A stretch of DNA of 34,390 bases from an uncultured Chloroflexia bacterium (GTDB lineage: Bacteria > Chloroflexota > Limnocylindria > Limnocylindrales > CSP1-4): the NCBI GenBank assembly GCA_963766735.1, contig CAVYBU010000024.1, forward strand, positions 1 through 34,390. Reading direction: 5' to 3'. Positions 1 to 32,266 of the stretch are shown one piece after another. Position 1 is the stretch's first letter; the number at the start of each line of letters is the position of its first letter. Under the pieces are notes generated by a model, which was given only the letters and a program-made list of their open reading frames with translations, was not told where the DNA came from and searched no databases. Made by a program: the position numbers and the translations under genes.

Positions 1-198
1 CGCTCCGGACCAGCTCGCACGGCTCTGGAGGCTCGGCGAGCCGCATCGTGATCGGAAGGTCGTTGGTGGCGGGGCTATCCCTCTCGCCCCGACCGAACTG
101 ACCTTCTTTCACGCGGACGACGCCGGTTCCGAAGGCCGCGTGCCAGCCTCGCGCCGAGGGCGACCCGGGGAAGCCAGGGATGGACGGGCACGCACACG

Positions 199-921
199 TC
201 AGGTGGTCGGTGGGACGGACCTGCCCGGGAACAGTAGCCTGAACTGCTTCGCGTACTGGCGCTTGCCCACGAGGCGCCAGAGCACCCTCACGGAGAGGGG
301 CATGCCCGCGTAGAAGATCTGGCGGTCCGCCGGCGTGGAGTTCGCAAGCAGCATCCCGATTTGCGGCAGGAGTCGACTCTTCGGGATCGCCCCGACACTA
401 TGGGCGGCCATCGCCGTCCACTCTTCCGTGGTCACCACCCGCTCCGCGACCGGGATGACCTCAACCACTTCACGGCGCAGGTGCACCTTCAGCACATCGA
501 GCATCCGGTCGTAGGCTTCGGCCAGCTGTTCGCCGACCGCCGGGTCGGCCGTCGCGCGCCATCGGGCGAGGAGCGGACTCGCCTCCTCGAGCAGTCCCGC
601 GACCTGCGCGTGGTGCGCGCGCATCTGGCCGACGTGCAGCGCGCAGGCGGGAGCGCGCTGCTCGAGCTTGTCCCACAGGAGTTCGTCCTCGCTCTCGTGA
701 TGCGTATGCAGCGTCGCGTCGAGATCGGCGAGCCACTCCCCGAGGAACTCGCTGCGCGCCACGTCACCGGCGGGAGCGCCGCGCACCAGTCCGGGCGCCT
801 CTTCGTATGCCCACAGGAACGCGTTGTGCAGGATGCGCATGTCCTCGCCGTTGCACAGCTTCGGCCCGTCAGGAACGGGCGGAGCGGTCTCACCGGGCAG
901 GGGGACGTACTCCATGGTCAT
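199..921 (-). CDS. Hemerythrin (HHE) domain-containing protein
   Basis: Motifs LHNAF, LHTHHESED, MRAHH, HLRRE. Start moved to ATG at 921 because AGGAGG lies just upstream. Confidence 0.85.
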   Translation of the reverse strand: MTMEYVPLPGETAPPVPDGPKLCNGEDMRILHNAFLWAYEEAPGLVRGAPAGDVARSEFLGEWLADLDATLHTHHESEDELLWDKLEQRAPACALHVGQMRAHHAQVAGLLEEASPLLARWRATADPAVGEQLAEAYDRMLDVLKVHLRREVVEVIPVAERVVTTEEWTAMAAHSVGAIPKSRLLPQIGMLLANSTPADRQIFYAGMPLSVRVLWRLVGKRQYAKQFRLLFPGRSVPPTT

Positions 922-956
922 GACGGACCTCCTGGGGGCGCGATGGGTTGCACCCA

Positions 957-962
957 AGTGTA
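957..962 (-). promoter_or_regulatory. Putative -10 element (TACACT) for the hemerythrin gene
   Basis: TAnnnT hexamer about 35 nt upstream of the ATG at 921; no clear -35. Confidence 0.35.
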
Positions 963-1025
963 GGTCCACGATCCTGCGTCGCCAACCGGCTGGCAACGAC
1001 GTCGGGGAGGCGCGGACCCATCGGG

Positions 1026-1184
1026 TCAAGACTTCGGAGCGGCCCGCGATCTGTTTGCTTCGGCCACACCTTCAGGCTCCGGCAGCCGCGTCGCCAAGAT
1101 CCACACCAGCTGCGCCGTGGTCGTCGCGCCCACCTTGAAGCGAGCGCTCGCCAGGTGGTGCTTCACGGTCGAGTGCGACAACCC
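1026..1184 (-). pseudogene. 5'-truncated LuxR-type C-terminal HTH remnant
   Basis: Manual translation GLSHSTVKHHLASARFKVGATTTAQLVWILATRLPEPEG...* resembles the LuxR recognition helix (TVKxH...K.G....QLV). An in-frame TGA lies a few codons upstream. Confidence 0.6.
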
Positions 1185-1439
1185 GGACCGAAGCTCGTTG
1201 CCTCATGCCAGCCGCCTCGCCGCGCGGCTGGTGACGACACCGCAGACCGTCACAGCTTCACCCGCGAATCGTCGTTGGGCGCAGGCGTTGCGGTCTATTC
1301 GCTCCTGGTGCCACGTCTGCGAGACCACCCTCGGAGCGCACCGGGCGTCCGGGGCCGTTTGCCTCTGGTCCGGCGCCCGTCCGCCGCCCACAATCAGCGG
1401 CAGGCGGGAAGCATCGATACGCGGTCCACGCTCCGTCCG

Positions 1440-1474
1440 CCGGGGCCGCGCCGGGCCACTGACGAGACCGACCC
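1440..1474 (+). repeat. 35-bp dispersed direct repeat, copy 1
   Basis: ccggggccgcgccgggccactgacgagaccgaccc; 31/35 identical to 3575-3609. Confidence 0.75.
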
Positions 1475-1539
1475 CGCGCCGTTGCGACGATGCCTGGGGT
1501 TTCTTGTTGCGGATCTCCCCCTGGAAGCATCTATAGGGT

Positions 1540-2079
1540 ATGAACGGTCAGGCGATGAGCAGTCCGACAGTCGCCGCCACCGTCACCCTCGCGGGGGCGG
1601 GTGACGAGGCGGCCTTCGCCCAGCTTGTCGCGACCTACCACGCCGACATGGCCCGGGTCGCCTTCGCCGCATGCGGCGACCGCGACCTCGCCGCCGACGC
1701 CGTCCAGGCGGCATGGCTCGTCGCCTGGCGCAAGCTCCGCTCGCTCCGCCACCCCGACCGGGTCCGTCCGTGGCTCCTCGCGGTGACCGCGAACGAGGCC
1801 CGCCAGCTCCTCCGCCGCCGCCACGGCCCGGTCGTGGAGATCGACGTCGACGTCGCAGCCGACCGGCGGGCCGATCCATCGACGGGCATCGAGCGTCTCG
1901 ACCTCCGTCGGGCGCTGGCCCATCTCTCGCCGGACGACCGGGCCCTCGTCGCCATGCACTACGTCATCGACCTCAGCTCCGACGAGCTCGGGGCGGCCGT
2001 CGGCACCTCGCCGTCCGCCGCCCGCATGCGTCTCTCCCGGGTCGTCGACCGCCTCAGGAAGGAGCTCTGCGATGGCTGA
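1540..2079 (+). CDS. ECF (sigma-70 group 4) RNA polymerase sigma factor
   Basis: Region 2 AFAQLV...AADAVQAAWLVAWRKL...PWLLAVTAN; region 4 LSPDDRALV...LSSDELGAAVG...ARMRLSR. Confidence 0.93.
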   Translation: MNGQAMSSPTVAATVTLAGAGDEAAFAQLVATYHADMARVAFAACGDRDLAADAVQAAWLVAWRKLRSLRHPDRVRPWLLAVTANEARQLLRRRHGPVVEIDVDVAADRRADPSTGIERLDLRRALAHLSPDDRALVAMHYVIDLSSDELGAAVGTSPSAARMRLSRVVDRLRKELCDG

Positions 2080-3421
2080 TCGCGATCGCTTCGAGCTCGA
2101 CCTCGCCGCCGCCCTGCGGACGTACCTGGAAGAGGCACCGACGGAGGTCCGCCCGACCCAGCTCGCCCGGCACTTCGCCACGGACTACCCTCCGGGACGG
2201 ACGTCGATTGGCCTGCGGCGCTTCGCCGCCATCCCGCACCCGGCCTGGGTGCTGCTCGTGGGAGCGGCCTTGCTCGCCGCGCTGCTCGGTGGTGCGCTCC
2301 TCGTCGGCTCGCAGGTGCAGCGGAAGCTCCCGGCCGTGGTGCCGCCCGTCGCCCCGTCCGCCGCCCCGGCGTACGCAGGAACCTGGGATCCCATCCTGGC
2401 CACCACCCGAGCCAGACCCGCTCCAGCCGCCGCCACCTGCCCGCCGGACACCGATCCGGCAACTCCTGGTGCGGCCGACCAGGAACGCCCCAAGGCGGGC
2501 TGGACGGGCAACCTGGCCGCAGCCTTCGACCGGCACACAGGCCGGATCGTCTATGTCGACACCCTCCGAGAAACCTGGACCTTCGACGTCTGTACCAGCA
2601 CCTGGCATCGCATGAATCCGACCGGGGCGATGATCGGTGAGCTCAGCGCCGGACTGGTCTACGACGTCGACTCAGACCGCACCGTCGCCCTTGGCTTCGA
2701 ACACATCTCGGTCTACGACGCCAACACCAACACTTGGACGCAGCCAGGCAACGACACCGTCGGTATTGGTGAAGGCCTCATCGTCCCCATGGGTGCTGCG
2801 TACGACCCGATCTCCGGCTTGATTCTCACCACGCGGTTCTCGGGTTGGGATGAGCAGGGCGAGACCGCCGGCGGCTGGGAGCTATGGGCCTACGACGTTG
2901 ACACGAACGACTGGACATTGGTCGGGACAGCCTCGTTCGAGCCGTCGCAAGCTCAGCGCCAGGGTAATGACACACAACCGCTGGAGCTCCTCGGGTACTC
3001 GCAGATGATCGATCGACTCATCTTCGGCTCCGGTCTCGAGACGACAGCCCTCGTCGACCCCCGCACCGGAGAAGCCACCCCTGTTTCCACCGACACCCCG
3101 CATGTCGACCTGGTATGGCCCAGCGGCGTCTACGGGCCTGCCGGCGACACCGTCTACGTCAAGCTGGGCTCAGAAGACGTCTGCGGGTTCGACTCCGACA
3201 GCCTGACCTGGAACGCCTGCTTCGACGCACCGGTCGCCCTGCCGAACTGGCCGAACTGGGCGTCCGTGTTCGCCGCCATGGTCGGCGACCCGATCAACCA
3301 GCGACTGATCCTGATCAACGGTGTCGGTGGCGCCTGGTGGTCCGAAGCCATGGACGACGTCTGGGCAATCGACCTCGACAACGGCGAATGGACCCAGCTT
3401 CTCGAACCATCAACTCAATGA
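2072..3421 (+). CDS. Putative single-pass anti-sigma factor with extracytoplasmic Kelch-like beta-propeller
   Basis: Overlaps the sigma stop. Short cytoplasmic N-terminus, TM helix (WVLLVGAALLAALLGGALLVG), Pro/Ala linker, repeats such as YDVDSDRTV, YDPISGLIL, WAYDVDTNDW, WAIDLDNGEW. Confidence 0.75.
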   Translation: MADRDRFELDLAAALRTYLEEAPTEVRPTQLARHFATDYPPGRTSIGLRRFAAIPHPAWVLLVGAALLAALLGGALLVGSQVQRKLPAVVPPVAPSAAPAYAGTWDPILATTRARPAPAAATCPPDTDPATPGAADQERPKAGWTGNLAAAFDRHTGRIVYVDTLRETWTFDVCTSTWHRMNPTGAMIGELSAGLVYDVDSDRTVALGFEHISVYDANTNTWTQPGNDTVGIGEGLIVPMGAAYDPISGLILTTRFSGWDEQGETAGGWELWAYDVDTNDWTLVGTASFEPSQAQRQGNDTQPLELLGYSQMIDRLIFGSGLETTALVDPRTGEATPVSTDTPHVDLVWPSGVYGPAGDTVYVKLGSEDVCGFDSDSLTWNACFDAPVALPNWPNWASVFAAMVGDPINQRLILINGVGGAWWSEAMDDVWAIDLDNGEWTQLLEPSTQ

Positions 3422-3574
3422 ACCGTGACCTCACCTCCGGCCCTTGTACGAGCCCTGGCTTGTCCCGATCCCGGAAGGCGGGGCGGGTCGTGGGGTGACT
3501 GTTCTGCTGCGGGGTGGTTTCTGATACGAGACCGGACTATCTGAATGGCGGCACCTACGCGTTAGGGAGGCCAC

Positions 3575-3609
3575 CCGGGACCGCGCCGAGCCACTGGTGA
3601 GACCGACCC
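3575..3609 (+). repeat. 35-bp dispersed direct repeat, copy 2
   Basis: ccgggaccgcgccgagccactggtgagaccgaccc; 31/35 identical to 1440-1474. Confidence 0.75.
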
Positions 3610-3638
3610 GCTGCCAAGCGTTCCAAGGATGGTGACTC

Positions 3639-4655
3639 ATGTGGAGCCGAACGTTGACCGCACTGGCCCCCGCGATTGCGCTGCTGCTTGCGGCCTGTGG
3701 TTCCGGCACCGCGGGATCGACACCGGTGACCACGACGCCTCCCGCCACGGCCGCGGCAACGGCCGCACCCAGCCCGGCCACGCCTGCACCGGTAGCGGGG
3801 GACGAGCCGTTCGCGCTGCTGACCGACAGCGTCGTGTACCACGAGGACGACGCTGGGGCCTGGTCGATGGACGTCTTCTATCCCGACGCGGAGGGTCCGT
3901 GGCCGCTCGTGATCGTCTACAACGGCATGAGCACATCCACGGCCGCCGGGGAAGCCCGGGAGATCGCCGCGCGCGGTGCCGTTGCCGTTGCCCCGCAGTG
4001 GCTGAAGGTGAAGCCTCCGGAGTTGACTCTTGAGGACTACATCGACGGAGGGCTGTTCGACCGCGCTGCATGCGCCGTGAACGCTGCGCAACACCTCGCT
4101 GCGGACTACGGCGCCGACCCGACGCGGACGACGGTCGCCGGCTTCTCCGCGGGTATGCACCCCACCGGATGGGTCGGCCTGGGCGTCGTGCGCAACGACG
4201 TGTGCCAGACACCGCAGCTGTATCAGCCGGTGGGGCTGGTCATGGGCGACAGCCAGTTCCTCTTCTACGAGCAGGGGTGGGACAGCTCGCTTGCGGACCC
4301 CAAGTCACCGGCGGCCGACACCGTTGACCGCTTCGTCAATCCGGAGCGATGGGACGTCCCCGACAACCTTGCCGTCTATCTGTGGACGTCGGACTACCCC
4401 TACGGGCGAGACATCGAGAATCCGCCGTCCGCGGAGTCCTGGATCCAGTCACGAGACACGACGGGCACGCTGATCAATGATCTGACGATCCTCGAGGCAT
4501 TCGACGACGAGTGGGTCGACTGGATGGACAACGGCCTGCTCATGGAGATGCGCATGAAGGGGGCCGGCCTCGGCGTGATCCATGAGGCCGTCGGCGGCGA
4601 GCACGCCTACAGCTCACGGGTGTTCGATGCCATCGAATCGCTGATCAGCCGCTGA
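3639..4655 (+). CDS. Lipoprotein, alpha/beta-hydrolase fold (esterase/lipase-like)
   Basis: Lipobox LLAAC, Thr/Ala/Pro linker, PWPLVIV strand, nucleophile elbow GFSAG, C-terminal GGEH. Confidence 0.8.
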   Translation: MWSRTLTALAPAIALLLAACGSGTAGSTPVTTTPPATAAATAAPSPATPAPVAGDEPFALLTDSVVYHEDDAGAWSMDVFYPDAEGPWPLVIVYNGMSTSTAAGEAREIAARGAVAVAPQWLKVKPPELTLEDYIDGGLFDRAACAVNAAQHLAADYGADPTRTTVAGFSAGMHPTGWVGLGVVRNDVCQTPQLYQPVGLVMGDSQFLFYEQGWDSSLADPKSPAADTVDRFVNPERWDVPDNLAVYLWTSDYPYGRDIENPPSAESWIQSRDTTGTLINDLTILEAFDDEWVDWMDNGLLMEMRMKGAGLGVIHEAVGGEHAYSSRVFDAIESLISR

Positions 4656-4694
4656 CCCCAGCCGGTCCCACTCCCCGGCCGGCGTCGAGTCCGG

Positions 4695-4826
4695 CTAGGG
4701 CTCCAGGCTCGCCACCACCAGCCACCCCTCCGCCCGCCCGCTGTTGATCAGCTGCTCGGTGGTGAGGCCCGAGCGCGCTCGACGGTCCGCCATGTGGCGC
4801 TTCGCGGTGCTCGCCGGACGCCAACC
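4695..4826 (-). pseudogene. Second 5'-truncated LuxR-type HTH remnant
   Basis: Translation GWRPASTAKRHMADRRARSGLTTEQLINSGRAEGWLVVASLEP* aligns with the 1026-1184 remnant (STxKxHxAxxR...GxTT..QL). Confidence 0.5.
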
Positions 4827-4839
4827 CCATGTGCTCCGT

Positions 4840-6192
4840 CTAATCCGTGACTTGACTCGAAAGCTCCTGGTGGACGTGCCGGTAGATGGCCAGGCGGTTG
4901 GCCTTGAACTTCGTCTTGAGATACAGGAGATAACGAACGCCTCCGCCACTCGTCTTTCGGTCGAGCGTGTGAACGTAGTCCCGAGCGATCTTGAGGCCAC
5001 CCTGGCGGGCCAGCTCGAGTGCGATCCAGTCAGATGGGCTGGCCCATTGCTTGATTTCCTGGACGATCCGGCGGGCGACCAGAGTGTCGTCGGGTTCCGG
5101 AATGAGACCGTATCCGTAGACAGGGCGCCCGAGGATCGGGTCTCTACCAACAATCCAGATCGAGTCATCCGGGATCTTGACTGCCATGCTGGCAATGCCG
5201 TCCGCCACGATGCGCTTCAAGAACCGCCGCATGGACTTCTGGACCCCCGCGCGAAGCGCGTTGATCCAGTTCGTGGCCATCTGGTAGACGGCCTTCGCCG
5301 GACCGCTGCCAATGTTGCGCCACCACTTCTCATTGTCGATCCCGATCTTCTTGGGCTTCCCCACCGCCTTGCCGAGTTCGCTGCGGGCACCCCGGGGGGA
5401 GCGGGGCGGTGTCAGACGATCTCGCCGGCCTCCTGGCGTGCTGCTGGTGTTGGGGGGGACCCCCACGCCCGGAGTTCTGGCTCCGGCACCGCGACGCGTT
5501 CGCGTCGTCCGCGTACCCGCCGCCCTACCCGACTTCTCCGTCACCAAGTAGGAGCCCCACCACTCGATCATGTGGAACGGCGAGATGCCCTCGGGAATGC
5601 CGGCGAGTGACTCCGACGACCAGTGCGTTCCCACTGGCGCGGGCGGTGTCCCCACGGGCAGGCGCTTCCCCGCCGCGGCCTCTATCCGCCGGCCCATCTC
5701 AGCGTGCATCTCAACCAGTGTCGTGGCCACGGCCTGCTGGACCGTCACGCCGTACCTCTGGCCCTCGCCCCGCAAGAATGCGTCCTTCCTTGAGGCTGAG
5801 GCCACGAGATCCGCGTTGCTGAGCATCGGGATCAGGACTCGATCGGCGGCGTCCTTGCCCAGGATCCGCGGAAGGGCACGCCGGGCTGGCGTCGATCCGC
5901 CAGCTTGGCGCTGGGTCGTCCGGACGGATCCGACAGGTTGGCGCGTCGGAAGATCGGCGATGAGCCTCGCGACGACGGCGTTCCCGACGACCGCCTGCAG
6001 TCTGAGGATTGCGTCAGCGCCTAGCCGAAGCTCGCGTTGCCCGACGGGGCGCCTACCTGGCTCGGAGTCCGCCCGGGCAAGGTCAGCAATGGGCCCGGCA
6101 ACCCCTGTTGACGCGTTTGGCCTACCCCCGGCAAGCCTCAGTGACGAGGATCCTCTGCCCCAGATGGGTGGCGTCCCTATCGCGCGGTCCAT
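4840..6192 (-). CDS. Hypothetical protein (about 450 aa) with LQxxxGNxxVxRL/QR leader; possible secreted effector or toxin
   Basis: ATG at 6192 with GGAGG RBS. N-terminal AILRLQAVVGNAVVARL then TQRQ; basic, aromatic-rich C-terminal domain; visibly more AT-rich than its neighbours. Confidence 0.65.
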   Translation of the reverse strand: MDRAIGTPPIWGRGSSSLRLAGGRPNASTGVAGPIADLARADSEPGRRPVGQRELRLGADAILRLQAVVGNAVVARLIADLPTRQPVGSVRTTQRQAGGSTPARRALPRILGKDAADRVLIPMLSNADLVASASRKDAFLRGEGQRYGVTVQQAVATTLVEMHAEMGRRIEAAAGKRLPVGTPPAPVGTHWSSESLAGIPEGISPFHMIEWWGSYLVTEKSGRAAGTRTTRTRRGAGARTPGVGVPPNTSSTPGGRRDRLTPPRSPRGARSELGKAVGKPKKIGIDNEKWWRNIGSGPAKAVYQMATNWINALRAGVQKSMRRFLKRIVADGIASMAVKIPDDSIWIVGRDPILGRPVYGYGLIPEPDDTLVARRIVQEIKQWASPSDWIALELARQGGLKIARDYVHTLDRKTSGGGVRYLLYLKTKFKANRLAIYRHVHQELSSQVTD

Positions 6193-6550
6193 GACCCTCC
6201 AGCGATCACGGGCGCCCGTCGCGTGATGGCCGCCCGCCAGGCGCCAGGGGCACGCAGACTGCGTCAGCCGCACGAGTGCGGGGCGTCCAGGTGTGTACTC
6301 CGCTGAAGACTATGGTGCGTATTGTCCCCCCCCAGCAGGGGTCCAGCAACACGCGGTCGCCACATCTGCCCCGATGGTTGTCTCGTTGCCCTTTCGAGCA
6401 GTTGTGGACGTCTGCTCACTCCCCCTCCTCGTACGGCGAGGCTCGGTCGATGGGCCAACAGGAGCGCCGAGCGGCGCGCTCCGACGGCCAAGAGGCGAAT
6501 GGATGCCACGGGGATCGGCGCACGGGCGGGTGGCCGGATGCCCTCGCCGA

Positions 6551-6599
6551 GACGTGAGCGAAGCGCCGGCGTGTCGTTCGGCGCTTCGCGAGCTCAGTC
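6551..6599. other. Long intergenic inverted repeat (hairpin)
   Basis: gcgaagcgccg (6558-6568) pairs perfectly with cggcgcttcgc (6579-6589); the stem extends with bulges to about 6551/6599. Confidence 0.6.
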
Positions 6600-6885
6600 A
6601 GCCTCCCGGAGCCGTCGCAGCCACTGGTCTCGCCCCTCAGCCTTCACATGCACGCTTCCCCGGGTGCCTCCTTGGGCTGACGCTCGCCTGATACCTGTCG
6701 GGCGCGCCAGACTTCCCGCCTGCCGAACCCGTTGAAGCCGGCCTAGGTGGGAACCCGAGCTGCGGGACATGGTGCCCCTCGGCGTGGCTGCTCCGATCCA
6801 AGACACCACGCGCGGGTTGTCATCGATCACGAATGGCTCGAGGCCCGGGACGGCCGGAACCACGGCAACAGCGCGCCCCCACGGC

Positions 6886-7389
6886 CTACAGCAATTCGAG
6901 GTCCTGGTGGTCGAGAGCTCGCGCCAGTGCGGCCTCCTCGACCGGAGTCAGGCGGTCCTCGAGGATCGGGATGTACAGCTCCTCCTCGGCCAGGTGCGTC
7001 TTGAGCAGGGCGTGGAGGCGCAGCAGGATCCGCCGCAGTGCCAGCACCGACGAACGATCGACGTGTGACGGCAGGTCCTCCATGAACAACCCAAGCCTCG
7101 CCACCAGGCGGCTGATCTCCCGGTGCTCCTTGACCATCACCACCGTGGTTCCGCTCGAAGCGGCGAGCCGATCGAGCGTCGGGAAGACCGCTGCCTCGAC
7201 CGTCTCCATGTGGGGGATCAGGTGATCCGTCAGGCCGTCGTGCGCCTCGCGCAGCAGCGGCAGGTGGCCGACGAGCCCCGCCGTGTCGAGGCAATCGCAG
7301 CCCAGGCAGTCTGCAAGGTCGTTGAGCAGGCCGACGTAGTGCCGGAGCAGGTGGTGGTGCTCATGCGAGACAGCGGTCAGCGGTTGCAT
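6886..7389 (-). CDS. Hemerythrin domain-containing protein
   Basis: HEHH, HLIPHMETVE, EHREI, HLAEEE motifs; GGAGG RBS; CxxCxC insert. Confidence 0.85.
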   Translation of the reverse strand: MQPLTAVSHEHHHLLRHYVGLLNDLADCLGCDCLDTAGLVGHLPLLREAHDGLTDHLIPHMETVEAAVFPTLDRLAASSGTTVVMVKEHREISRLVARLGLFMEDLPSHVDRSSVLALRRILLRLHALLKTHLAEEELYIPILEDRLTPVEEAALARALDHQDLELL

Positions 7390-7461
7390 CGTTTCCTCCC
7401 GGGGACGCTACGTCAGCCTGGTCGCCGCCCGCGCCACGAAGGACGCGAGCGCCGGAGACCG

Positions 7462-7737
7462 TCACTCGAGGTTGCCGCCCTCCCCGGAACTGCCGAGCGC
7501 CAGGATCTCGGCCTCGATCTCTCGGACCATCAGGCGCAGTTGCTCGAGGCGCGCGCCGAGGTCCTCGGTGGCCAATTCCGGGTCGGGCTGCCGCGGTCGG
7601 CGATATCGACGTTCCATGGGCAATCCGGCCTCGTCGAGCCAGCCGACGCGGCGCCATGAGACGTGGTCGCAGGGACCTCGGCCATACGACTCGTGGGCAT
7701 GGGTTCCACACCCGTGCCGGTCATATCCGCAGCTCAT
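7462..7737 (-). CDS. Small Cys/His/Gly-rich protein with C-terminal coiled coil (DUF5320-like)
   Basis: ATG at 7737 with GGAGG RBS, directly after the PadR stop; MSCGYDRHGCGTHAH...LGARLEQLRLMVREIEAEILAL. Confidence 0.65.
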   Translation of the reverse strand: MSCGYDRHGCGTHAHESYGRGPCDHVSWRRVGWLDEAGLPMERRYRRPRQPDPELATEDLGARLEQLRLMVREIEAEILALGSSGEGGNLE

Positions 7738-7738
7738 C

Positions 7739-8152
7739 TCAACCTCCCGGGTCATCAGGCACGCCATCGATCCCATCGAGGAAGACGTCGATCAGGCGGG
7801 CTCGCTCCCGCATCACCGAGATCCATTCGTCGAGCGCCCGATGGCCCTCGTCGGCCAGCCGGTACGTCCGCCGCGGCGGCCCGTCGTTCGTGACCCACGT
7901 CGACACCACGAGACCTTCCGCCTCGAACTCGCGGAGTGCGCGGTAGGCCATCCCCTCGTCGACGCCGTCCGGTGCCAGGCAGAGGTCGTCGAGCTGGGTG
8001 ATGAGGGCGGCGCCGTGCACCTCTCCCTCGGCGATCAGACGCAGCAGGAATGGCTCGAGCCAGCGACCGCGCCGGCCGCCTTCTCGAACCCAGCCCCGAT
8101 GCGCGTCGTGGTGGTCGTGTGGGTGCGCGTGGTGAACGTCATCCTGATCCAT
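7739..8152 (-). CDS. PadR-family transcriptional regulator with His-rich N-terminus
   Basis: LEPFLLRLIAEGEVHG...YRALREFEAEGLVVSTW...GPPRRTYRLADEG; N-terminal HHAHPHDHHDAH. Confidence 0.9.
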   Translation of the reverse strand: MDQDDVHHAHPHDHHDAHRGWVREGGRRGRWLEPFLLRLIAEGEVHGAALITQLDDLCLAPDGVDEGMAYRALREFEAEGLVVSTWVTNDGPPRRTYRLADEGHRALDEWISVMRERARLIDVFLDGIDGVPDDPGG

Positions 8153-8167
8153 GCCAATAGCATCCGT

Positions 8168-8180
8168 CTGCCACTGGCAG
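8168..8180. promoter_or_regulatory. Candidate PadR operator palindrome CTGCCA-C-TGGCAG
   Basis: Perfect 6-bp inverted arms about 15 nt upstream of the PadR start. Confidence 0.4.
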
Positions 8181-8222
8181 TTGCCAAGTGCCGCATGACC
8201 CCCCCGGATCGAACCGACCGGG

Positions 8223-9512
8223 TCAGCGGTGGAGATTCTCGGCCGCGACGAAGCTCAGGCCGTGCTCGGTCAGTGACCGCGCGGTGTGGTTCGTGGCACC
8301 GACCTTGTCCATGAAATTGGACTGGAGCGCCTCCCAGTCTCCGCTGGCGATCACCTCGGCCTTGTCCCGGAAGTAGTCGAGGATGTCCGAGGGGTGGGGG
8401 TTCGCCGCGTCGACGTCCGGATCGCCGCCTTCGTGCTTGGCGGCGATGTTCGCCACGTGGTCGGCGAGCTCGACCAGCTCCGCGCGCCGGTCGTACGGCT
8501 GGCGCACGATGCTCTTGTAGGTCTCGGTGATGTGGTGCTCGAAACGGACAGCGTCCTGGAGCCCCAGCGCCCGGCGGATCTGTGCCGAGATCTCGAGCGT
8601 CCGGTTGTCGACCGAGTTGCCCCAGTTGAAGCCGACCAGCGGGGTCGTGCCGTCCTCGCGCGCGAACAACCTCGCGCCCATGAGCGTCCACAGCCCGGAG
8701 AACGGGTTGTCATTGCCCATGAACACGGAGATCTTGAACTCGATGTCCACCCCCAGCCTGTGGAGCAGGTAGCCGGCCAGGACGGTCCCGGGGTTGATGT
8801 TCAGGACCTGTTGCACGCCGTACGTCGTGTAGTAGTGGAGGAACTCGTCCACCCACATCAGCGGATGATCGTTGGGCTGCCCGATACCACCAAAGTAGCC
8901 GGTGATCGTCGCAGGGCCGTCGAGGTGGACGTTGGAGCCGTCGGTGCCCTTCGTGTCCAGGGTCTCGACGACGCTGGCGCCGATGATCTGCATCGCGGCC
9001 GCAACCGCCGGCAGGTCCCCGTCCGCCTCCTGCTCCGCCATCTTCCGGACGCGGATCCAGCGGCCGGGCATCAGCGACCGGTCGGCGATCGCGCGCCGGG
9101 CCGCCTCGATCACCCACGGGAAGTACTGGAGCGAGCTGACCTCGAGGGTCACGGCCAGATCGTCGCGGAAGGCCATCGAATCGGCCCGGTCGCCCACGAC
9201 GCCGCGGCGGAAGTCCGCGACGCTCACGAAGGCGTCCCGGTCGCGCTGCTCGGCAAGCCAGTCCAGATCGGCCAGGTAGGCCGGCTGGATCTCCCTGACC
9301 CGGTCCAGGAGCGCCGGCAGCTGGCCCGCCTCCAGCGCCCGGCGGTTGATCTCCTCGGGGGTGCCGTACCGGGCCACGATCTCGAGCAGGTCGTTGACGA
9401 TCCGGGCCTCCGGGTCGAGCAGGAACGCGTTGAGCTCGTCCAGCCGGTCGGCCGGGATCGCCAGCCGGGCCCGGAGGTCGGTCTCCGGATCCGTGCGGGA
9501 CACCGTGGTCAC
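8223..9512 (-). CDS. Uncharacterised enzyme-like protein (429 aa) downstream of panB
   Basis: Own GAGGAG RBS and GTG start at 9512. Globular composition with motif-like stretches [47 protein letters not shown]. The 751-aa ORF fusion with panB is a frameshift artefact. Confidence 0.85.
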
Positions 9513-9550
9513 AGTCGTCTCCTCTTGAGCACCGGGGCGGGTGGCGATCG

Positions 9551-10406
9551 TCAGTCGAGCAGCGCGAGCAGCTCGTCGTACTCGTCGTCCTTCATGCCGA
9601 ACCAGTTTGCCGGGGCCGGAAAGGTCCGCTCGGTCACCTCGCCGACGTAGGCCGCGAGACCCTCGCGGATGACGGCCCCCGCGTCTGCGAACACCTTGGC
9701 CATCCGCGGCGTGAACTTCGGGTAGAGCCCGAACGCGTCGTGGTAGATCAGCAGCTGGCCGTGGGCGTCCGGCCCGGAGCCCAGGCCCATGATGATGGCG
9801 CCCTGGGCCCGATCCTTGATCAGGCCGCACAGGCGATCGGGCACCAGCTCCAGCAGGACGCAGAACGCGCCGGCCTCCTCGAGGATCCGGGCGTCGTCGA
9901 CGATCTTCTTCGCCTTTGCGGCGCTCTTGCCCTGGAGCCGGAAGCCGCCGAGGGAGCTCGCGCTCTGGGGGGTGAGCCCCAGGTGGCCGATGACGGGGAT
10001 CCCCGCCCCTGCGATGCCGGCCACGCGGTCCGCCATCTCGGCACCGCCCTCCAGCTTCACCGCAGTCGCAGCCGGTCTCGGCCATGAACCGGCCGGCGTT
10101 GCGGATCGCTGTCTCCACGCTGGGCTGGTAGCTCATGTAGGGCATGTCGCCCACGACCCACGCGTTGGGCGCCCCGCGCCGCACCGCCGCCGTGTGGCGG
10201 ATCATGTCGTCCATGGTGACCGGCAACGTGCTGTCAAACCCGAGCATCGTCATGCCCAGGCTGTCGCCGACGAGGATCATGTCCACCCCGGCCTCGTCCT
10301 GCAGGTACGCGGTCGGGTAGTCGTAGCACGTCAGCCAGGTGATCGGGGTGCCGGCCGCCGCCTTGTCGATCAACGCCGGCAGGGTCATTCGCTTGCGCTC
10401 CGTCAC
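9551..10406 (-). CDS. panB: 3-methyl-2-oxobutanoate hydroxymethyltransferase (one apparent frameshift near 10062-10064)
   Basis: [23 protein letters not shown], then after +1 nt [25 protein letters not shown] start at 10406 with AGGAGG RBS. Confidence 0.93.
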
Positions 10407-10489
10407 CGTGGCCTCCTGTCCAGCAATCGTGTCGTCATGCTTCATCGTCCGCGCCCGGGGCCGGCGGAACAGGTCCATTGGGCCCGAAG

Positions 10490-10541
10490 GCCGCGGCGGG
10501 GACGCCCGGTCGCGTCGAAGCGGGTCTGTGTCCGCCGCGGC
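10490..10541. other. Intergenic hairpin between the DUF4405 gene and panB (terminator or leader RNA)
   Basis: gccgcggcgg (10490-10499) pairs with ccgccgcggc (10532-10541), with inner gcccg/cgggt pairing. Confidence 0.5.
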
Positions 10542-10557
10542 ATCGCGGCAGAGGTGA

Positions 10558-11199
10558 TCAGCGCCGGACGCGGCGGGGAGCGCTGCGCTGGCCGGTGACG
10601 AGCAGGCGCACGTCAGACACGAGGCCGGACCTGACGACCACCACGTGGGTGGCCGCGATCAGGATCACACCCATCGCGATGGCGGTGTGGATGTCCGCCC
10701 AGCCGTGCTTGGTCACGGCGAAGAGCAGGATCTGCTGGCCCGCACGCCGGCCGTCTGCCGCCAGCCAGTGAACGACTCCGCTGCCGAGGATGATGGGCAC
10801 GAGGATGGCCATCGCCATCACGACGACGGCGCGGACGTAGACGATCGCCCTCGGCCGCCGGGCCGCTCGCGAGGCGGCGCTCCGCTTGCCGGTGAGGATG
10901 AGACGCGTATAGGAGAGGACCCCGCGCCGCATCACGGTCACGTGGACGAGCGTCAGGACGACCGCCAGGACCGAGGCCACGACGTGGATGTCGTTCCAGG
11001 CGTGCCTGGTCAGGCCGAGGAGCGAGGGCAGCTGGTCGGCGCGCCATCCATCGACCGCCAGCCAGAGAACGATCCCGCTCAGGGCCGACACGGTCCAGTT
11101 GGCGATCATCGCCAGGGCGACGACGGATCGCACGTAGAAGATCGTCTTCGCCCGGGGGGCTGCGGACGTGGTGGTGGTGGAGAGCGGGATCGCGGTCAT
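10558..11199 (-). CDS. Membrane protein with two DUF4405-like repeats (cytochrome b-like His ligands)
   Basis: Duplicated unit SGIVLWL...WNDIH...LVHV and SGVVHWL...WADIH...ATHV. Confidence 0.8.
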
Positions 11200-11249
11200 G
11201 GTCGGAGCTCCGGTACGGGTCCTCGGGATCTGTGCGGGCGGTCGGCGGT

Positions 11250-12149
11250 TCAGCCGGCCCGACCCTGCCCGGTCGGCGAGCCGATGATCGACTGGAAGTC
11301 GCCCACGGAGATGTGGGTCGGCGTGTAGGTCACGCCCTGGCGACCCAGGTTCCTCACGAACGCACGGAGGTGGTTCTCGGAGCCGTGCTCCAGGTCTGCG
11401 TAGACCAGCGCGATGTCCGGGGTATCGGTCGCCCGCTCGCGCAGGTCGCTGATGTCGAGATCCTCGATCAGCGCCCCCACGGTGAGGGCATCCACGAGCG
11501 ACGTCTTCCCGCGCGCCACGAGGTCGTCGTACAGCGTCTGGAGGTCCGGGTTCGTGAACACCCCCGCCGGCTGACCGGCGGCCGGATCAGCGATCCCGTA
11601 GCGATCCAGGAGGGTCCTGACGGCCTCCATGTGGGTCGTCTCGGCACGGGAGATGTTCTCGAAGACCTGCCTGCCCCAGGTGTCTCCGAGCGTCACGTAC
11701 ACGTCGTGGGCCAGCTTCTCCTCCTCACGCATCCACACCAGGCCATCGACCTCCTCGGCGGTCAGCGTGGCGACCGGCAGGGCCGCGATGCGGAGCGAGA
11801 CGTCCCCGTTCTCGCCTGCACCCCGCTCAACGTCGCCCCCCGCGTAGCCCCCGCCGCCCCCGGCCCCGCCGCCGTAGCCGCCCCCGGTCCCGCCGACGCC
11901 AGCGCCGCTGCCGCCTGCAAGCCTGCCGCCACCGGTCTCGGCCCCGCGCCCGAAGCCGCCGCCGTCGCCGGCAACGCCGAGCCCGATCCCGGCCTCGTGG
12001 TCGGACCGGACCACGGCGGGGTCATTGCTCACCGCCCCGAGGGAGTAGGCCCCAACAGCCAGGACCGCACCGAGACCGGCGACGAGCGCAACGACCCGGC
12101 GTCGGCTGCCGTGGTTGACCGTGGGTTGAGTCGGCGTCTGAACAGACAT
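11250..12149 (-). CDS. DUF2202 ferritin-like protein with N-terminal membrane anchor and Gly-rich linker
   Basis: MREEEKLAHDVY, FENISRAETTHM, GALIEDLDI, GSENHLRAF; ATG at 12149 with AAAGGA RBS. Confidence 0.87.
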   Translation of the reverse strand: MSVQTPTQPTVNHGSRRRVVALVAGLGAVLAVGAYSLGAVSNDPAVVRSDHEAGIGLGVAGDGGGFGRGAETGGGRLAGGSGAGVGGTGGGYGGGAGGGGGYAGGDVERGAGENGDVSLRIAALPVATLTAEEVDGLVWMREEEKLAHDVYVTLGDTWGRQVFENISRAETTHMEAVRTLLDRYGIADPAAGQPAGVFTNPDLQTLYDDLVARGKTSLVDALTVGALIEDLDISDLRERATDTPDIALVYADLEHGSENHLRAFVRNLGRQGVTYTPTHISVGDFQSIIGSPTGQGRAG

Positions 12150-12348
12150 GGACGAGGATCCTTTCGAGTCGAGTCGCGGTCCGCTCACTGGCGAACCGAC
12201 CACGCCATGAGTTGACTCCATGCAGGTGGAGCGTCGGTGGACGCGCGATGGAGTCTTCGCGGAGCTATCGCCAGGTCGCTGCGCTCGAGCCCTCGCCACC
12301 GAGCGCGCCGAACCCGCGTCCAGGCTGGCCCTCGCCCGTATCGCTGGC

Positions 12349-12411
12349 GGAGACGCGCTGCGTGACGAATGGACACGCCCAAGCCCATGTATCCATTCGT
12401 CGCGTCGTCTC
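12349..12411. promoter_or_regulatory. Back-to-back inverted ECF-like promoter pair
   Basis: Minus strand gtgtccattcgtcacgcagcgCGTCTc; plus strand gtatccattcgtcgcgtCGTCTc. Perfect 10-bp inverted repeat at 12364-12373/12392-12401. Confidence 0.4.
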
Positions 12412-12415
12412 GTCC

Positions 12416-12600
12416 ATGGAGTAGAAGCGGGCGACCACCCGCCCCCAGGAGAACCCGGCAACACCGGCTCCAAGGGACGGCGCCGTCGCCGATGCGTTCG
12501 CAGACCAGCTGGTGACGGAACTGCCCCGCCTGGTCCGACTCGCCATCCGCCTGGTTCGCGACGCGGGCCGGGCGCAGGGATGTGCCCAGGAGACGTCGGT
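12416..12600 (+). pseudogene. ECF sigma factor remnant (region 2 fragment)
   Basis: ATG GAG TAG (nonsense at codon 3), then in frame DAFADQLVTELPRLVRLAIRLVRDAGRAQGCAQET, resembling ECF region 2.1-2.2; similarity then ends. Confidence 0.6.
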
Positions 12601-12647
12601 CGGCAGCGCGGCCGTGCTTCGGCGTCGGCAGGGTCCGGTGAAGACCC

Positions 12648-13115
12648 CTATCCGGATCGGGGCGACAGGATGACGACGGCGGTCTCCCGGGAGCGGCGCG
12701 CCGCGAAGGCGTCGAGGTCCTTGTCGTAGGCGGCCCACCTGGCCCACAGGCGGGGCCGCTCATCAGGGCTTGCCGCGCGTCCGTGGACGGCGCGGGACCC
12801 ACCGGGCAGGTCGACGGTGACGTCGGGCTGCGCCTGCAGGTTGAGCCACCACGCGGGCTCGGCATCGGCCCAGCCGTTCATGGCCATGGTGACCAGGTCG
12901 GGCCCGTCCTCGAAGTAGCCGAGGATGGCAACGCGCTCCTCGCCGGTGCGGCGCCCGACCGTGCGCAGGCGCATCATGCCCCAGCGGTCGGCCCTCGCGG
13001 TCCGGAGGCCGAACCGGCCGCCGGTGACCGAATATGCGGCCCGCTGCACCGCCCAGAACGTGCGCACGAACCAGCGCGGCGGCAGGGACGGTGACTTCTT
13101 CGACGGTTCCGACAT
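12648..13115 (-). CDS. F420H2-dependent (deazaflavin) nitroreductase-family oxidoreductase, Ddn/DUF385-like
   Basis: LRTVGRRTGEER, MAMNGWADAEPAWWLNLQAQP, RETAVVILSP. Confidence 0.9.
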   Translation of the reverse strand: MSEPSKKSPSLPPRWFVRTFWAVQRAAYSVTGGRFGLRTARADRWGMMRLRTVGRRTGEERVAILGYFEDGPDLVTMAMNGWADAEPAWWLNLQAQPDVTVDLPGGSRAVHGRAASPDERPRLWARWAAYDKDLDAFAARRSRETAVVILSPRSG

Positions 13116-13137
13116 GGTGTGCTCCAGTCCGGCGTGG

Positions 13138-13539
13138 CTACGCAGCCGTGGAGACCCACGTCCATGCGTACCAGGCGGTCAAGGCGTTGAAGACGATGCT
13201 CACGAGGATCAGGAAATTGTCGTACATGCCCACGTACGGCAGGCCAGCGAGATTGAAGAGAACGACGAGCACGGCCACGACGATGTTGACCCAGCCGATT
13301 GCGGGATACGGCAACGTCAGGGACAGGACGACCATGACGATCGGGACCAGCATGATCACCGCGATCCCCAGCCACATTCCCTGGCCCGCCTTGCGGCCCC
13401 CGATCTCCCCCGGCGTCACGTGGCCGGCCATCAGGCGCAGCACATCCCCGAGGAGGTAGGTCAGCATCACCGCGACCCACAACCCCGAGAGAATGATCCT
13501 CACATCCGCCATGGTTTCTGTTGCCTCGCTCTGCTTCAT
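13138..13539 (-). CDS. Small four-TM membrane protein (DUF6326-like)
   Basis: LSGLWVAVMLTYLLGDVL followed by three more hydrophobic helices; co-oriented in the operon. Confidence 0.75.
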   Translation of the reverse strand: MKQSEATETMADVRIILSGLWVAVMLTYLLGDVLRLMAGHVTPGEIGGRKAGQGMWLGIAVIMLVPIVMVVLSLTLPYPAIGWVNIVVAVLVVLFNLAGLPYVGMYDNFLILVSIVFNALTAWYAWTWVSTAA

Positions 13540-13557
13540 CGTGGTGGTGGCCGGGCC

Positions 13558-14535
13558 TCAGATCGTGACGACGACCTTCCCTCGTGCGTGCCCCGCCTCG
13601 ATGTGGCGGATGGCCGCCGCCGCCTCGGGCAGTGGATAGGTCGCGTCGATGACCGGCCGGAGCGTCCCCTCCTCGACCATTGACGTGAGGACCTCGAGAT
13701 CCTGCCGGTTCGGGACGGAGAAGGGCCGGCGCAGGCTGTGCTTCACGAAGGGGTTCAGCACGACCGGCCGGATCAGCCGGACCAGCAGCCGCAGGCCACT
13801 CGCGCCCGTGCCACTCATGAGGACGAGGGTGCCCTCGGGCGCCAGGACACGTCGAGTGTCCGCGAGGGAGTGGTTCTCCATGTTGTCGAGGATCACGTCG
13901 TAGCGTTCCGTGCCCCGGGTGAAGTCCTCCCGGGTGTAGTCGATGACGTGGTGCGCGCCAAGCGAGCGGACCAGCTCCACGTTGTTCGGGCCGCACACGC
14001 CGGTGACCTCGGCGCCGAGGTGCCGCGCGATCTGCACCGCGTAGGTGCCCACGCCGCCCGACGCGCCGTTGATGAGGACCTTCTGACCGGCCTGCAGCCG
14101 GCCCGCATCGCGGAGGCCCTGGAGCGCCGCGGACGCCGACGTCGGGATGGCCGCGGCCTGCTCGAAGCTCATGCCGGACGGCTTGAGGACGAGCGTGTCC
14201 TCGGCGGCCCGCGCGTACTCGGCGCAGGCGCCCGACGACGGCCAGCTGCAGATGCCGAAGACCTCGTCGCCGGGTGCGAACCGGGTCACGGCGCTGCCGG
14301 TCGCCTCGACCGTCCCGGCGATGTCGGACCCGGGCACGCCGAACTTGGGCCCGCGCAGGCCGCTCGTGAACCGGACCGGGAACGGCGAGCCCCGGACGCC
14401 GAACACGTCACCGATGTGGAGCCCCGCGGCGTGGACGCGCACGAGCACCTCCCGGTCGCCGATCCCGGGCTTGTCGATCTCCCGGCTGACGAGCACCTCC
14501 GGCCCGCCATACCGCTCCTGGACGATTGCCTGCAC
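13558..14535 (-). CDS. NAD(P)-dependent alcohol dehydrogenase / quinone oxidoreductase (MDR family)
   Basis: GPEVL, PGSDIAGTV, INGASGGVGTYAVQIA, HARGKVVV; GAGGAG RBS. Confidence 0.93.
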   Translation of the reverse strand: MQAIVQERYGGPEVLVSREIDKPGIGDREVLVRVHAAGLHIGDVFGVRGSPFPVRFTSGLRGPKFGVPGSDIAGTVEATGSAVTRFAPGDEVFGICSWPSSGACAEYARAAEDTLVLKPSGMSFEQAAAIPTSASAALQGLRDAGRLQAGQKVLINGASGGVGTYAVQIARHLGAEVTGVCGPNNVELVRSLGAHHVIDYTREDFTRGTERYDVILDNMENHSLADTRRVLAPEGTLVLMSGTGASGLRLLVRLIRPVVLNPFVKHSLRRPFSVPNRQDLEVLTSMVEEGTLRPVIDATYPLPEAAAAIRHIEAGHARGKVVVTI

Positions 14536-20736: not shown

Positions 20737-21324
20737 GTGAACGATCACGAGGCCACCTTCGTCGAGCAGCTTGGCCAGCACCTCTCTGCCCGGGGTATGC
20801 AGCGGATGGCGGGGCGCGCATGGGCGTGGCTGCTGATCTGCGATCCGCCGGAGCAGACGGCCGAGCAGCTCGCGGAGGCGCTGCACGCGAGCCGCGGGGC
20901 GATCAGCGGTGCGATGCGTGTCCTCACCAGTGCGGGCTTCGTCCACCGTGGCCGGCGGCGCGGTGACAGGCGCGAGTTCTTCAGCGCCCCGCCCGGTGCC
21001 ATTCGCCGCCTGGTCGCCAACGGCGGCACGGTCATGGCGCACGGGCGCGAGATCGCGGACGAAGGCCTGGCGCTCCTCGCCGGCCGCCCGCCCGAGGACC
21101 GGGCCAGGCTCCTCGAGTTCCGTGACCTCTACGCGTACTACGAGCGCGAGTGGCCCATCCTCGTCGCTCGCTATCTCGCGGACCGGACGGAGCCCAATGG
21201 TGGTGTGGTACCGGGCACCGACCGGGCACAGCCCCCGCCCGGGTCGGCCGTTGAGGAGCCACCGATACCGCCCAGCAGGACGCATCAGGTCGCCAGCGCG
21301 CCGGAAGGGAACCGATCCATATGA
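20737..21324 (+). CDS. MarR/GbsR-family winged-helix regulator
   Basis: GMQRMAGRAWAWLLICDPPEQTAEQLAEALHASRGAISGAMRVL...RRGDRREFF. Confidence 0.88.
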   Translation: MNDHEATFVEQLGQHLSARGMQRMAGRAWAWLLICDPPEQTAEQLAEALHASRGAISGAMRVLTSAGFVHRGRRRGDRREFFSAPPGAIRRLVANGGTVMAHGREIADEGLALLAGRPPEDRARLLEFRDLYAYYEREWPILVARYLADRTEPNGGVVPGTDRAQPPPGSAVEEPPIPPSRTHQVASAPEGNRSI

Positions 21325-32240: not shown

Positions 32241-32266
32241 GTCGCTGGCGCTGGTTCTGCCCGGAC

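Follow-up and report, generated by a model that had tools for sequence, protein, structure and literature searches.

Does the gene that stands behind panB in a contig of an uncultured Chloroflexia bacterium replace one of the known steps of pantothenate synthesis, or does it belong to a different pathway in which a PanB protein takes part? The contig (C24, CAVYBU010000024.1; 34,390 nt, analysed at full length and called the window in the following; 66–76% G+C) carries on its minus strand a panB paralog of the ketopantoate hydroxymethyltransferase (KPHMT) family (9551..10406, found with PF02548 and TIGR00222 in two frames) and, downstream of it on the same strand, the gene for a 429-aa protein (8223..9512, defined by its open reading frame (ORF), its translation and a two-domain AlphaFold2 (AF2) model). 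We call this protein X, and the clade of PanB paralogs linked to it PanB2. X starts with the GTG at 9512. The panB stop codon ends at 9551, which leaves a spacer of 38 nt (9513..9550, minus strand) that, read directly from the sequence, holds a ribosome-binding site, AAGAGGAG, 7 nt upstream of the GTG. An earlier note, made from the sequence alone, had described this arrangement correctly, and all six motifs it quoted for the 429-aa product are present in the translation. The panB it named does match PF02548 over its full length, but it is not a single open frame, one extra base having been overlooked. Two roles had been proposed there for X. A substitute for PanC, PanD or PanE is not supported; a partner in a different PanB-dependent pathway is supported by same-strand linkage to PanB in three collections of loci and by a separate PanB clade. 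Our best explanation, to which we incline without being convinced of it, is that X marks, as its signature enzyme, an accessory module that moves horizontally and handles small hydroxy and oxo acids of the C4 type, with PanB2 as the second enzyme.

The linkage of X homologs to panB was scored in 78 loci from genomes, 18 loci from an unbiased sample of the phylum and 79 metagenome loci, the last being seeded with one deltaproteobacterial X and hence biased to its relatives. ORFs were simple longest frames, and partners were counted within 3.5 kb. PanB was found on the same strand in 53/78, 11/18 and 20/79 loci, respectively (22/80 in a looser listing of the metagenome loci), and in most loci PanB and X are separated by about −4 to about 120 nt.

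Furthermore, the X-linked PanBs form a group of their own. In a tree of 100 PanBs, 61 X-linked ones and two unlinked copies from X genomes fall together with a support of 86 in the Shimodaira–Hasegawa-like approximate likelihood ratio test (SH-aLRT; 97 for the Chloroflexota part), apart from 36 other PanBs that include housekeeping copies of the same genomes and the copy on contig C4 of the genome studied here. The C4 copy groups with the housekeeping PanBs of its family and adjoins panC. A housekeeping PanB would be expected to group with the single PanB of related genomes and to adjoin panC or panE, which is not the case for the X-linked PanB. The broken panB of the window is not a row of this tree and was assigned to the PanB2 clade by its position beside X and by its 70–80% identity to the X-linked PanB of locus L018, an intact relative that scores 280.2 bits with TIGR00222. 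The PanB of Zixibacteria is nested inside the X-linked group, and the copies of Bacillota and Proteobacteria are sister to it on long branches, a pattern which argues that the panB-X pair was transferred as a unit.

At the sequence level, the residues D45, D84, K114, E116, H138 and E183 (alignment positions), which we take to be the metal-binding and catalytic residues of PanB, are invariant in 26 PanBs of both clades. There are 21 positions fixed differently between PanB2 and the other PanBs, with clade-specific changes in the pocket, among them the equivalents of E. coli V179, I202, D209, I212 and V214. According to excerpts of PMC7611260, the exchanges I202A and I212A alter the range of 2-oxo acids accepted by E. 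coli KPHMT. Thus, the changes at the equivalents of I202 and I212 make a changed substrate of PanB2 plausible. Compared with the KPHMT family (PF02548) in general, PanB2 is alike in its full-length family match, here in two frames, and in the conserved catalytic Asp, Lys, Glu and His; it is unlike in forming a separate clade that co-occurs with a housekeeping PanB and in its pocket changes. Paralogy of PanB seems to be common in these anaerobes: the Bacillota genome of locus L039 (G203) has six PanB-family matches, two of them in tandem (e.g. C7:351-2005), and the Synergistales genome has three.

A replacement of PanC, PanD or PanE by X would fit its placement after panB and the finding that the genome, 93.85% complete, has no match to PanD or to ApbA_C. 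Against it stands, already in the same genome, a canonical panB next to panC on contig C4. We therefore turn to the distribution among 201 genomes of the phylum, each at least 85% complete (the tallies include three genomes flagged as unpublished). PanB was matched in 172/201 of them, PanC in 170/201, ApbA_C (PanE type) in 113/201 and PanD in 56/201. The occurrence of X is patchy: it has strong matches in 19/201 genomes, and two more matches are weak, a 31-residue remnant and one with E 4e-4. It is present in 2/9 genomes of its own family, is not found in the genome G072 of the same genus, and occurs in 11/13 genomes of family f9. The own family has PanB and PanC in 9/9 and PanD in 0/9 genomes irrespective of X, and 7/9 keep PanB and PanC with neither X nor PanD. 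Among the 19 X genomes, PanC is found in 13, ApbA_C in 17 and PanD in 2; at least two PanB matches are present in 16, G012 has the X-linked PanB alone, and G002 and G015 carry X with PanB and PanC both unmatched. X and PanB lie 440 kb apart on one Thorarchaeota chromosome, and another Asgard chromosome (G202) has X with PanB unmatched. The anti-correlation with panC, panD and panE that a substitute would show was not seen across the 201 genomes. X is therefore not needed by the known pantothenate genes, nor is its distribution complementary to theirs, and we regard the replacement as highly improbable. The second panB copies of anaerobes and soil Chloroflexota are a distinct paralog that probably has no role in making vitamin B5, a point of importance for metabolic reconstructions and for predictions of vitamin auxotrophy from metagenome-assembled genomes.

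By sequence, X matches no characterised family in Pfam, NCBIfam or the PDB. The first two gave no match at E ≤ 1, in line with the earlier statement that X has no PanC, PanE or PanD signature. A search of the PDB returned one chance-level match (E 0.52), a 38-member profile none at E ≤ 10, and the ESM Atlas yielded no usable match, whether queried with the entire protein or with just the barrel. The gene is real: every one of the 8000 candidates scored proved homologous, so that the database has at least 8000 homologs, and the top 120 share 80–100% identity. Every source name among these best 120 reads 'hypothetical protein', and a precomputed Pfam domain is attached to none of them. A set of 1.84 billion representatives, clustered at 50% identity, contains only 533 matches, mostly fragments; about five are near full length, at 42–71% identity. 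Relatives are encoded in 536 stretches of species-representative genomes. Bacterial carriers are Chloroflexota (Anaerolineae, Limnocylindrales, Caldilineaceae), Deltaproteobacteria, Zixibacteria, Synergistales and Bacillota; archaeal ones are Thor-, Hermod- and Promethearchaeota. Between these carrier groups (bacterial phyla, archaea) X is 57–72% identical; over Chloroflexota, Asgard archaea, Deltaproteobacteria and Bacillota as a whole the range is 57–95%.

The only longer fused form found is P0274 (759 aa), in which a domain resembling dihydrodipicolinate synthase (DHDPS) is joined to a complete X; this domain carries the GTTG and lysine motifs, presumably the defining ones of the DHDPS family. 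An X relative of 631 aa (P0100) shows no extra Pfam domain. P0137 and P0129 were rejected as true fusions, as unrelated pieces (BKACE, M16C_assoc) stand there beside a partial X and the sequences look chimeric or mis-called. Some members carry a label of the Joint Genome Institute (JGI), 'PrlF antitoxin/regulator' (in full 'bifunctional DNA-binding transcriptional regulator/antitoxin component of YhaV-PrlF', cluster P0124). It is contradicted by fold and context and looks like a propagated mis-annotation. A divergent branch (P0128 / P0282; 42% identical, 422 aa) includes one sequence found on 616 contigs from four sources. Its carrier is thus an organism that is sequenced often and could serve as a cultured entry point for experiments.

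The AF2 model of X, built from 38 sequences, is confident (predicted local distance difference test (pLDDT) 93.2, predicted template modelling score (pTM) 0.91), with a lower confidence in the loop 190–210. It consists of seven N-terminal helices (about residues 9–111) and an eight-stranded beta/alpha (triosephosphate isomerase, TIM) barrel (about 116–429). Model and alignment place the invariant or nearly invariant polar residues (E124, R151, R156, D186, K188, N238, K260, D268, N296, E325, H326, H327, K359, H360 and E361) at or just past the ends of the barrel strands, as one would expect for the active site of a barrel. The combination of structure prediction and Foldseek that the earlier note had suggested thus delivered a clear fold, but the matches are non-specific. 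The best ones, themselves weak, are class II (metal-dependent) aldolases of the fructose-bisphosphate aldolase type (E 2e-5, probability 1.00, template modelling score (TM) 0.33–0.45) and sugar epimerases. The structure searches gave generic barrel matches only, and enolase-type barrels appeared solely among these. The barrels of ThiC and of glutamate mutase GlmE score within about 1–2 Z units of generic barrels, at 7–8% sequence identity, and no conserved gene for an Fe-S (radical SAM) or B12-binding protein turned up beside X in the neighbour listings.

The fold also separates X from the pantothenate enzymes. It is a TIM barrel and not a Rossmann-like nucleotidyltransferase as PanC, with PF02569 unmatched; ApbA and ApbA_C (PF02558, PF08546) of PanE are unmatched and the N-terminal domain is all-helical in the model; PF02261 of PanD is unmatched. 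For the acid-sugar dehydratases (enolase superfamily, UxuA, IlvD/Edd) there was no Pfam or NCBIfam match either, nor a PDB chain with the 38-sequence profile at E ≤ 10. A distant relationship of X to PanB itself, and with it a place in the ICL/PEP-mutase/PanB superfamily, which a similarity between KHEGG and VKLEGG might suggest, was tried and rejected: hhalign of 38 X against 26 PanBs gave a probability of 0.1 over 17 columns.

The other neighbours of X can be used as a guide to its chemistry. Fusion genes of DHDPS and formaldehyde-activating enzyme (Fae) occur near X in 1/78 genome loci (opposite strand), 1/18 sample loci and 3/79 metagenome loci. At L170, L177 and L182, X is followed at 10–111 nt by two genes, each of which fuses a DHDPS-family class I aldolase to an Fae domain. 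At L093, in the genome G002 for which no PanB was matched, such a pair lies 2.4 kb downstream of X (coordinates of the pairs: L182:8270-11168; L170:3911-6809; L177:3736-6649; L093:9713-13119). The first gene of each pair scores narrowly above the dapA equivalog cut-off (218.4 > 206.15). We know of no description of this domain fusion.

A second set of neighbours is seen in the metagenome loci. Homoserine dehydrogenase is present in 17/79 (15 on the same strand), starting 3–7 nt after X in 14 loci and overlapping X by 61 nt in a fifteenth. It scores above the NCBIfam equivalog cut-off (429.8 > 373), and its loci belong to a low-GC lineage (31–39% G+C). Aldehyde:ferredoxin oxidoreductase is found in 15/79 (13 on the same strand), aminotransferase in 11/79, and subunits of 2-oxoacid:ferredoxin oxidoreductases in 13/79 (four on the same strand) as well as in 2/78 genome loci. 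An ELFV-type amino-acid dehydrogenase of about 620 aa with a C-terminal CBS pair (9/78 genome and 4/79 metagenome loci; L018:9317-11188 and 12 others) is always on the strand of X and adjoins X or PanB2. It scores far below all NCBIfam cut-offs and occurs without PanB at L022, L025, L167, L168 and L220, elsewhere together with PanB. A search for it in the 201 genomes at E ≤ 1e-40, with six candidates scored per genome, returned no match, which we did not count as evidence. The archaeal loci have a threonine synthase in divergent orientation beside X. In the Bacillota locus L039 the operon order is sigma-54 activator, methionine gamma-lyase (above its cut-off), X, PanB, M20 deacylase, the tripartite ATP-independent periplasmic (TRAP) transporter genes DctPQM, and M20; M20 amidohydrolases are also found at L029, L043 and L045. 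Regulators of the Lrp/AsnC type precede PanB-X at L046, L104 and L109 and follow X at L022. Loci of the Anaerolineae type have an oxaloacetate-decarboxylase beta subunit before PanB-X and a VorB-type 2-oxoacid:ferredoxin oxidoreductase after it, which in some of them scores as the 2-oxoisovalerate type (499.5 > 399). EamA-type exporters lie near PanB-X in 9/78 loci. An NAD_binding_2 (HIBADH-like) gene near PanB-X in 15/78 loci was considered as a partner and set aside as lineage synteny, because it is always on the opposite strand and confined to Chloroflexota loci.

Which compounds are handled by this module may be judged from the transporters. Pantoate and erythronate are 2,4-dihydroxy acids, and their 2-oxo or dehydrated forms are substrates of the PanB type. 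The S-component of an energy-coupling factor (ECF) transporter is present in 12/78 genome loci and lies directly upstream of X in 13/14 archaeal loci, the fourteenth ending before its upstream sequence. TRAP transporters were counted in 2/78 genome and 3/79 metagenome loci (one on the same strand); they adjoin X in L039, L042 and L158 and lie close by in L185 and L189. The binding protein of L039 is closest to PDB 4p47, 4pdd, 7bbr, 4pdh, 4nq8 and 4p9k/4pak. The liganded homologs in this group hold pantoate or erythronate, and 7BBR holds 2-keto-3-deoxygluconate (excerpts of PMC11668362); 'pantoate/D-erythronate' is given as one TRAP ligand class in excerpts of PMC5812351. The binding protein of L042 is closest to lactate- and keto-acid-binding proteins; there and in the archaeal loci X is accompanied by a transporter alone. 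Uptake systems together with ferredoxin-linked oxidoreductases suggest that the X module breaks down an imported acid.

We infer substrate, direction and chemistry as follows, starting from three observations: the genes that accompany X, a PanB2 clade of its own, and the fold. X would be a very conserved TIM-barrel enzyme at the node between 4-hydroxy-2-oxo acids and homoserine, with a dedicated PanB paralog. PanB and the DHDPS-aldolase-Fae fusion are different proteins that formally make or break the same bond, C3-C4 of a 4-hydroxy-2-oxo acid. Since the two alternate beside X and one aldolase is fused to X, X can be expected to act on the 4-hydroxy-2-oxo acid side. Most likely X, as a metal-dependent TIM-barrel enzyme, would form this compound from an acid taken up by the cell, with hydroxyl groups in the 2,4- or 2,3,4-positions. 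The favoured reaction would be the dehydration of erythronate or threonate to 4-hydroxy-2-oxobutanoate, the alternative one a conversion of pantoate to ketopantoate. PanB2 would then interconvert the 4-hydroxy-2-oxo acid and a 2-oxo acid plus a one-carbon (C1) unit on tetrahydrofolate. The task of PanB2 would apparently fall, for other lineages, to the fusion of a DHDPS-type class I aldolase with Fae, and with both partners the C1 piece would be held on a pterin carrier and not be freed as formaldehyde. Two fates of 4-hydroxy-2-oxobutanoate are conceivable: it may be split into pyruvate and methylene-tetrahydrofolate by PanB2 or the aldolase-Fae fusion, or be transaminated to homoserine, its amino-acid counterpart, with an oxidation through aspartate semialdehyde leading on to aspartate. 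Homoserine dehydrogenase, the aminotransferase or ELFV dehydrogenase, aldehyde oxidoreductase, threonine synthase and methionine gamma-lyase would all touch this node, with the aldehyde oxidoreductase possibly taking aspartate semialdehyde to aspartate.

The dehydration of erythronate or threonate, which would account for the DHDPS-Fae and homoserine neighbours and for the altered pocket of PanB2, is favoured because a metal barrel that works without a cofactor is well suited to dehydration and because a nucleotide- or flavin-binding signature is missing in X. In its most explicit form, which we hold to be unlikely, X would found a new family of cofactor-independent, metal-dependent C4 sugar-acid dehydratases, PanB2 would be a formaldehyde-safe retro-aldolase that releases pyruvate and hands the C1 unit directly to tetrahydrofolate, DHDPS-Fae would do likewise with a methanopterin-type carrier, and a side branch would lead from homoserine over aspartate semialdehyde to aspartate. 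Several findings weigh against such a module for C4 acids. The X family is known here from sequence, gene context and predicted fold. The neighbour counts take in related genomes and are not independent events, 5/16 evaluable loci of the sample have no informative neighbour, and the DHDPS-X fusion is a single record. As the first DHDPS-Fae gene passes the dapA cut-off, if narrowly, its product may act on aspartate semialdehyde instead of setting formaldehyde free. The usual cargo of ECF transporters is vitamins and not carbon sources, so that pantoate or pantothenate would fit better than erythronate. Finally, the VorB-type oxidoreductase and the Lrp-type regulators fit 2-oxoisovalerate and ketopantoate, the normal PanB substrates, and not pyruvate.

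The latter points lead to a competing explanation, in which X interconverts pantoate and ketopantoate, either as a non-orthologous ketopantoate reductase or as a pantoate dehydrogenase in catabolism or salvage. As a reductase it would complete a second pantoate-making module (valine to 2-oxoisovalerate, ketopantoate and pantoate); as a dehydrogenase it would feed a path from pantothenate or pantoate over ketopantoate to 2-oxoisovalerate and methylene-tetrahydrofolate, with PanB2 run backwards. Ketopantoate is the known product of PanB. The TRAP binding protein of L039 is a member of the group whose crystals contain pantoate or erythronate, ECF S-components such as those of the archaeal loci typically carry vitamins, the M20 amidohydrolases of L039, L029, L043 and L045 could split pantothenate, and the VorB-type enzyme after PanB-X, the ELFV-type dehydrogenase (possibly a valine dehydrogenase) and the Lrp regulators would find their place as well. 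However, X matches no nucleotide- or flavin-binding family, and 17/19 X genomes already have ApbA_C-type PanE genes, most of them also a housekeeping PanB. The homoserine dehydrogenase, aldehyde oxidoreductase, aminotransferase and DHDPS-Fae neighbours would be left unexplained, class I DHDPS-type aldolases normally use pyruvate, and the pocket residues of PanB2 are unlike those of the housekeeping PanB. We consider this version, which would account for the ECF transporter, the VorB-type oxidoreductase, the Lrp regulators and the M20 amidases, less favoured and on the whole unlikely.

Alternatively, the C4 chemistry could be anabolic: a C1 unit bound to folate or pterin would be added to pyruvate, by PanB2 or by the aldolase-Fae fusion, to give 4-hydroxy-2-oxobutanoate and then homoserine, and X would convert one of these two onward. 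The neighbours at the homoserine node, the threonine synthase beside X in archaea, the EamA-type exporters and the Fae domain, which points to C1 handling, would agree with this. Yet the TRAP and ECF uptake systems and the ferredoxin-linked oxidoreductases suggest breakdown, no candidate product is known, and at L042 and in the archaea X stands with a transporter alone; we judge this direction distinctly unlikely. X might also serve the folate or pterin side of the PanB reaction, in the repair or recycling of cleaved folate or in the supply of C1 carriers. This is very unlikely, as its folate-family match stays below threshold, no pterin-binding family was matched, X occurs in genomes without a PanB match and the homoserine-related neighbours would not be explained. 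The tight gene coupling and the unusually high conservation of both proteins, in turn, would be expected of a non-catalytic or regulatory subunit binding PanB2, an idea barely credible for a protein that occurs without PanB in many loci and genomes and has invariant polar residues at the ends of the barrel strands, as in active sites.

The breakdown of a C4 acid by X and PanB2 would have parallels among known pathways. In non-phosphorylative (Dahms-type) pathways an acid is converted to a 2-keto-3-deoxy acid and this to pyruvate and an aldehyde by a dehydratase and an aldolase (excerpts of PMC12994016). The proposed route would follow the logic of a dehydratase with a DHDPS-family aldolase, and DHDPS-type genes do follow X or are fused to it. 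It would differ in that X lies outside the known dehydratase families by sequence and that the aldehyde would be formaldehyde, captured by PanB2 or the Fae domain. The known routes for C4 sugar acids proceed via 2-oxo-tetronate and phosphorylated intermediates to dihydroxyacetone phosphate (DHAP), and the same excerpts of PMC12994016 describe no dehydratase route to 4-hydroxy-2-oxobutanoate. The catabolism of L-threonate and D-erythronate (2-dehydrogenase, OtnI, OtnK and OtnC to DHAP) shares with our proposal the candidate substrate class and the TRAP proteins of the pantoate/erythronate group. It goes, as far as these excerpts tell, through 2-oxo-tetronate, whereas the X route would be a dehydratase route. 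In the open-access literature searched, we found no description of a formaldehyde capture on a pterin in Dahms-type pathways, and nothing on the X family, on a panB partner of this kind or on such a route.

If true, a dehydratase route for C4 sugar acids would be new. A C1-capturing retro-aldol reaction would be a new link from sugar-acid or homoserine metabolism to the folate C1 pool and would offer natural enzymes for formaldehyde-based synthetic pathways; it would mean that the synthetic homoserine-cycle chemistry has a natural counterpart of wide distribution, and that a PanB-family enzyme has, for the first time, a physiological role outside pantothenate synthesis. X stands for a family of at least 8000 database proteins with no family assignment and no solved relative, and its gene context is sufficient to design an assay panel in which C4 hydroxy and oxo acids are coupled to PanB2 and folate.

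The broken frame of panB in the window deserves a separate account. Positions 1-109 of PF02548 are encoded by 10065-10406 (144.8 bits) and positions 110-258 by 9551-10063 in another frame, one base out of register (167.6 bits). With TIGR00222 the halves score 122.4 and 138.9 bits, and the cut-off of 207.55 is passed only by summing both. Translation of both halves and comparison with contig C9 and with short-read contigs place a single extra base at 10060..10064 (minus strand), a run in which the sequence does not tell which base is the extra one. The N-terminal frame stays open across the rest of panB into the X gene, resulting in a meaningless ORF of 751 aa. The copy of panB-X on C9 differs from the window by 47 substitutions and nine single-base indels in 2.25 kb; it is free of the extra base at about 10060 and has X broken in three other places. 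Short-read (Logan) contigs of runs X1 and X2, from one sample, are one base shorter at 10060, and that of run X3, from another study, at 10063. Since neither the C9 copy nor the contigs of the three runs have this base, the frameshift is probably not biological; these comparisons point to an assembly artefact or a rare variant and not to a fixed pseudogene. The contigs of X1 and X2 have in addition one more A behind 9546, in the panB-X spacer. Scattered frameshifts of a like kind are found in other assemblies (L051, L053, L078 and a second copy in L083). This second panB-X copy of L083 (10353-12456) lies about 1.7 kb downstream of an intact pair and is either a tandem duplication or an assembly artefact.

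In the window the panB-X pair stands alone. It is flanked by a gene for a PadR-family regulator (7739..8152, minus strand; PF03551, E 4e-15), 70 nt downstream of X, and by DUF4405 and DUF2202 genes. That the PadR gene belongs to the panB-X unit is doubtful, and PadR is absent from the conserved neighbour clusters of X loci. A PadR domain is fused to the threonine synthase beside X in archaeal loci, perhaps by coincidence. Between 7600 and 10800 no terminator-like or promoter-like sites were found beyond the level of shuffled sequences, nor is the RNA fold of the spacer more stable than that of shuffles (z +1.2). Contigs of the RNA run X19 cover parts of both genes; as carry-over of DNA is possible, we did not take them as evidence for expression. 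The two DUF genes are found upstream of panB, at 10558-12473 (minus strand). One encodes a DUF4405 membrane protein in which, judged by eye, the N-terminal half resembles the C-terminal one; the other encodes a DUF2202 (ferritin-like) protein whose N-terminal region is long, of low complexity and rich in Gly/Ala.

With respect to the assembly, the window is a redundant haplotig. Its positions 1-14512 are 97.2% identical to the end of C9 and 21141-34390 are 97.8% identical to the start of C3. Genes in these two parts are counted twice in the assembly, and scattered single-base indels are present in both copies. According to offset self-matches against C3, a stretch of about 289 bases occurs twice at 32280-32761, about 190 bases apart and 98% identical, as a tandem-like repeat inside long ORFs at the 3' end of the window. 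At the other end, positions 1-94 recur on contigs C19, C8 and C26 with 88–96% identity and may represent a short dispersed repeat or the end of a mobile element at the contig edge.

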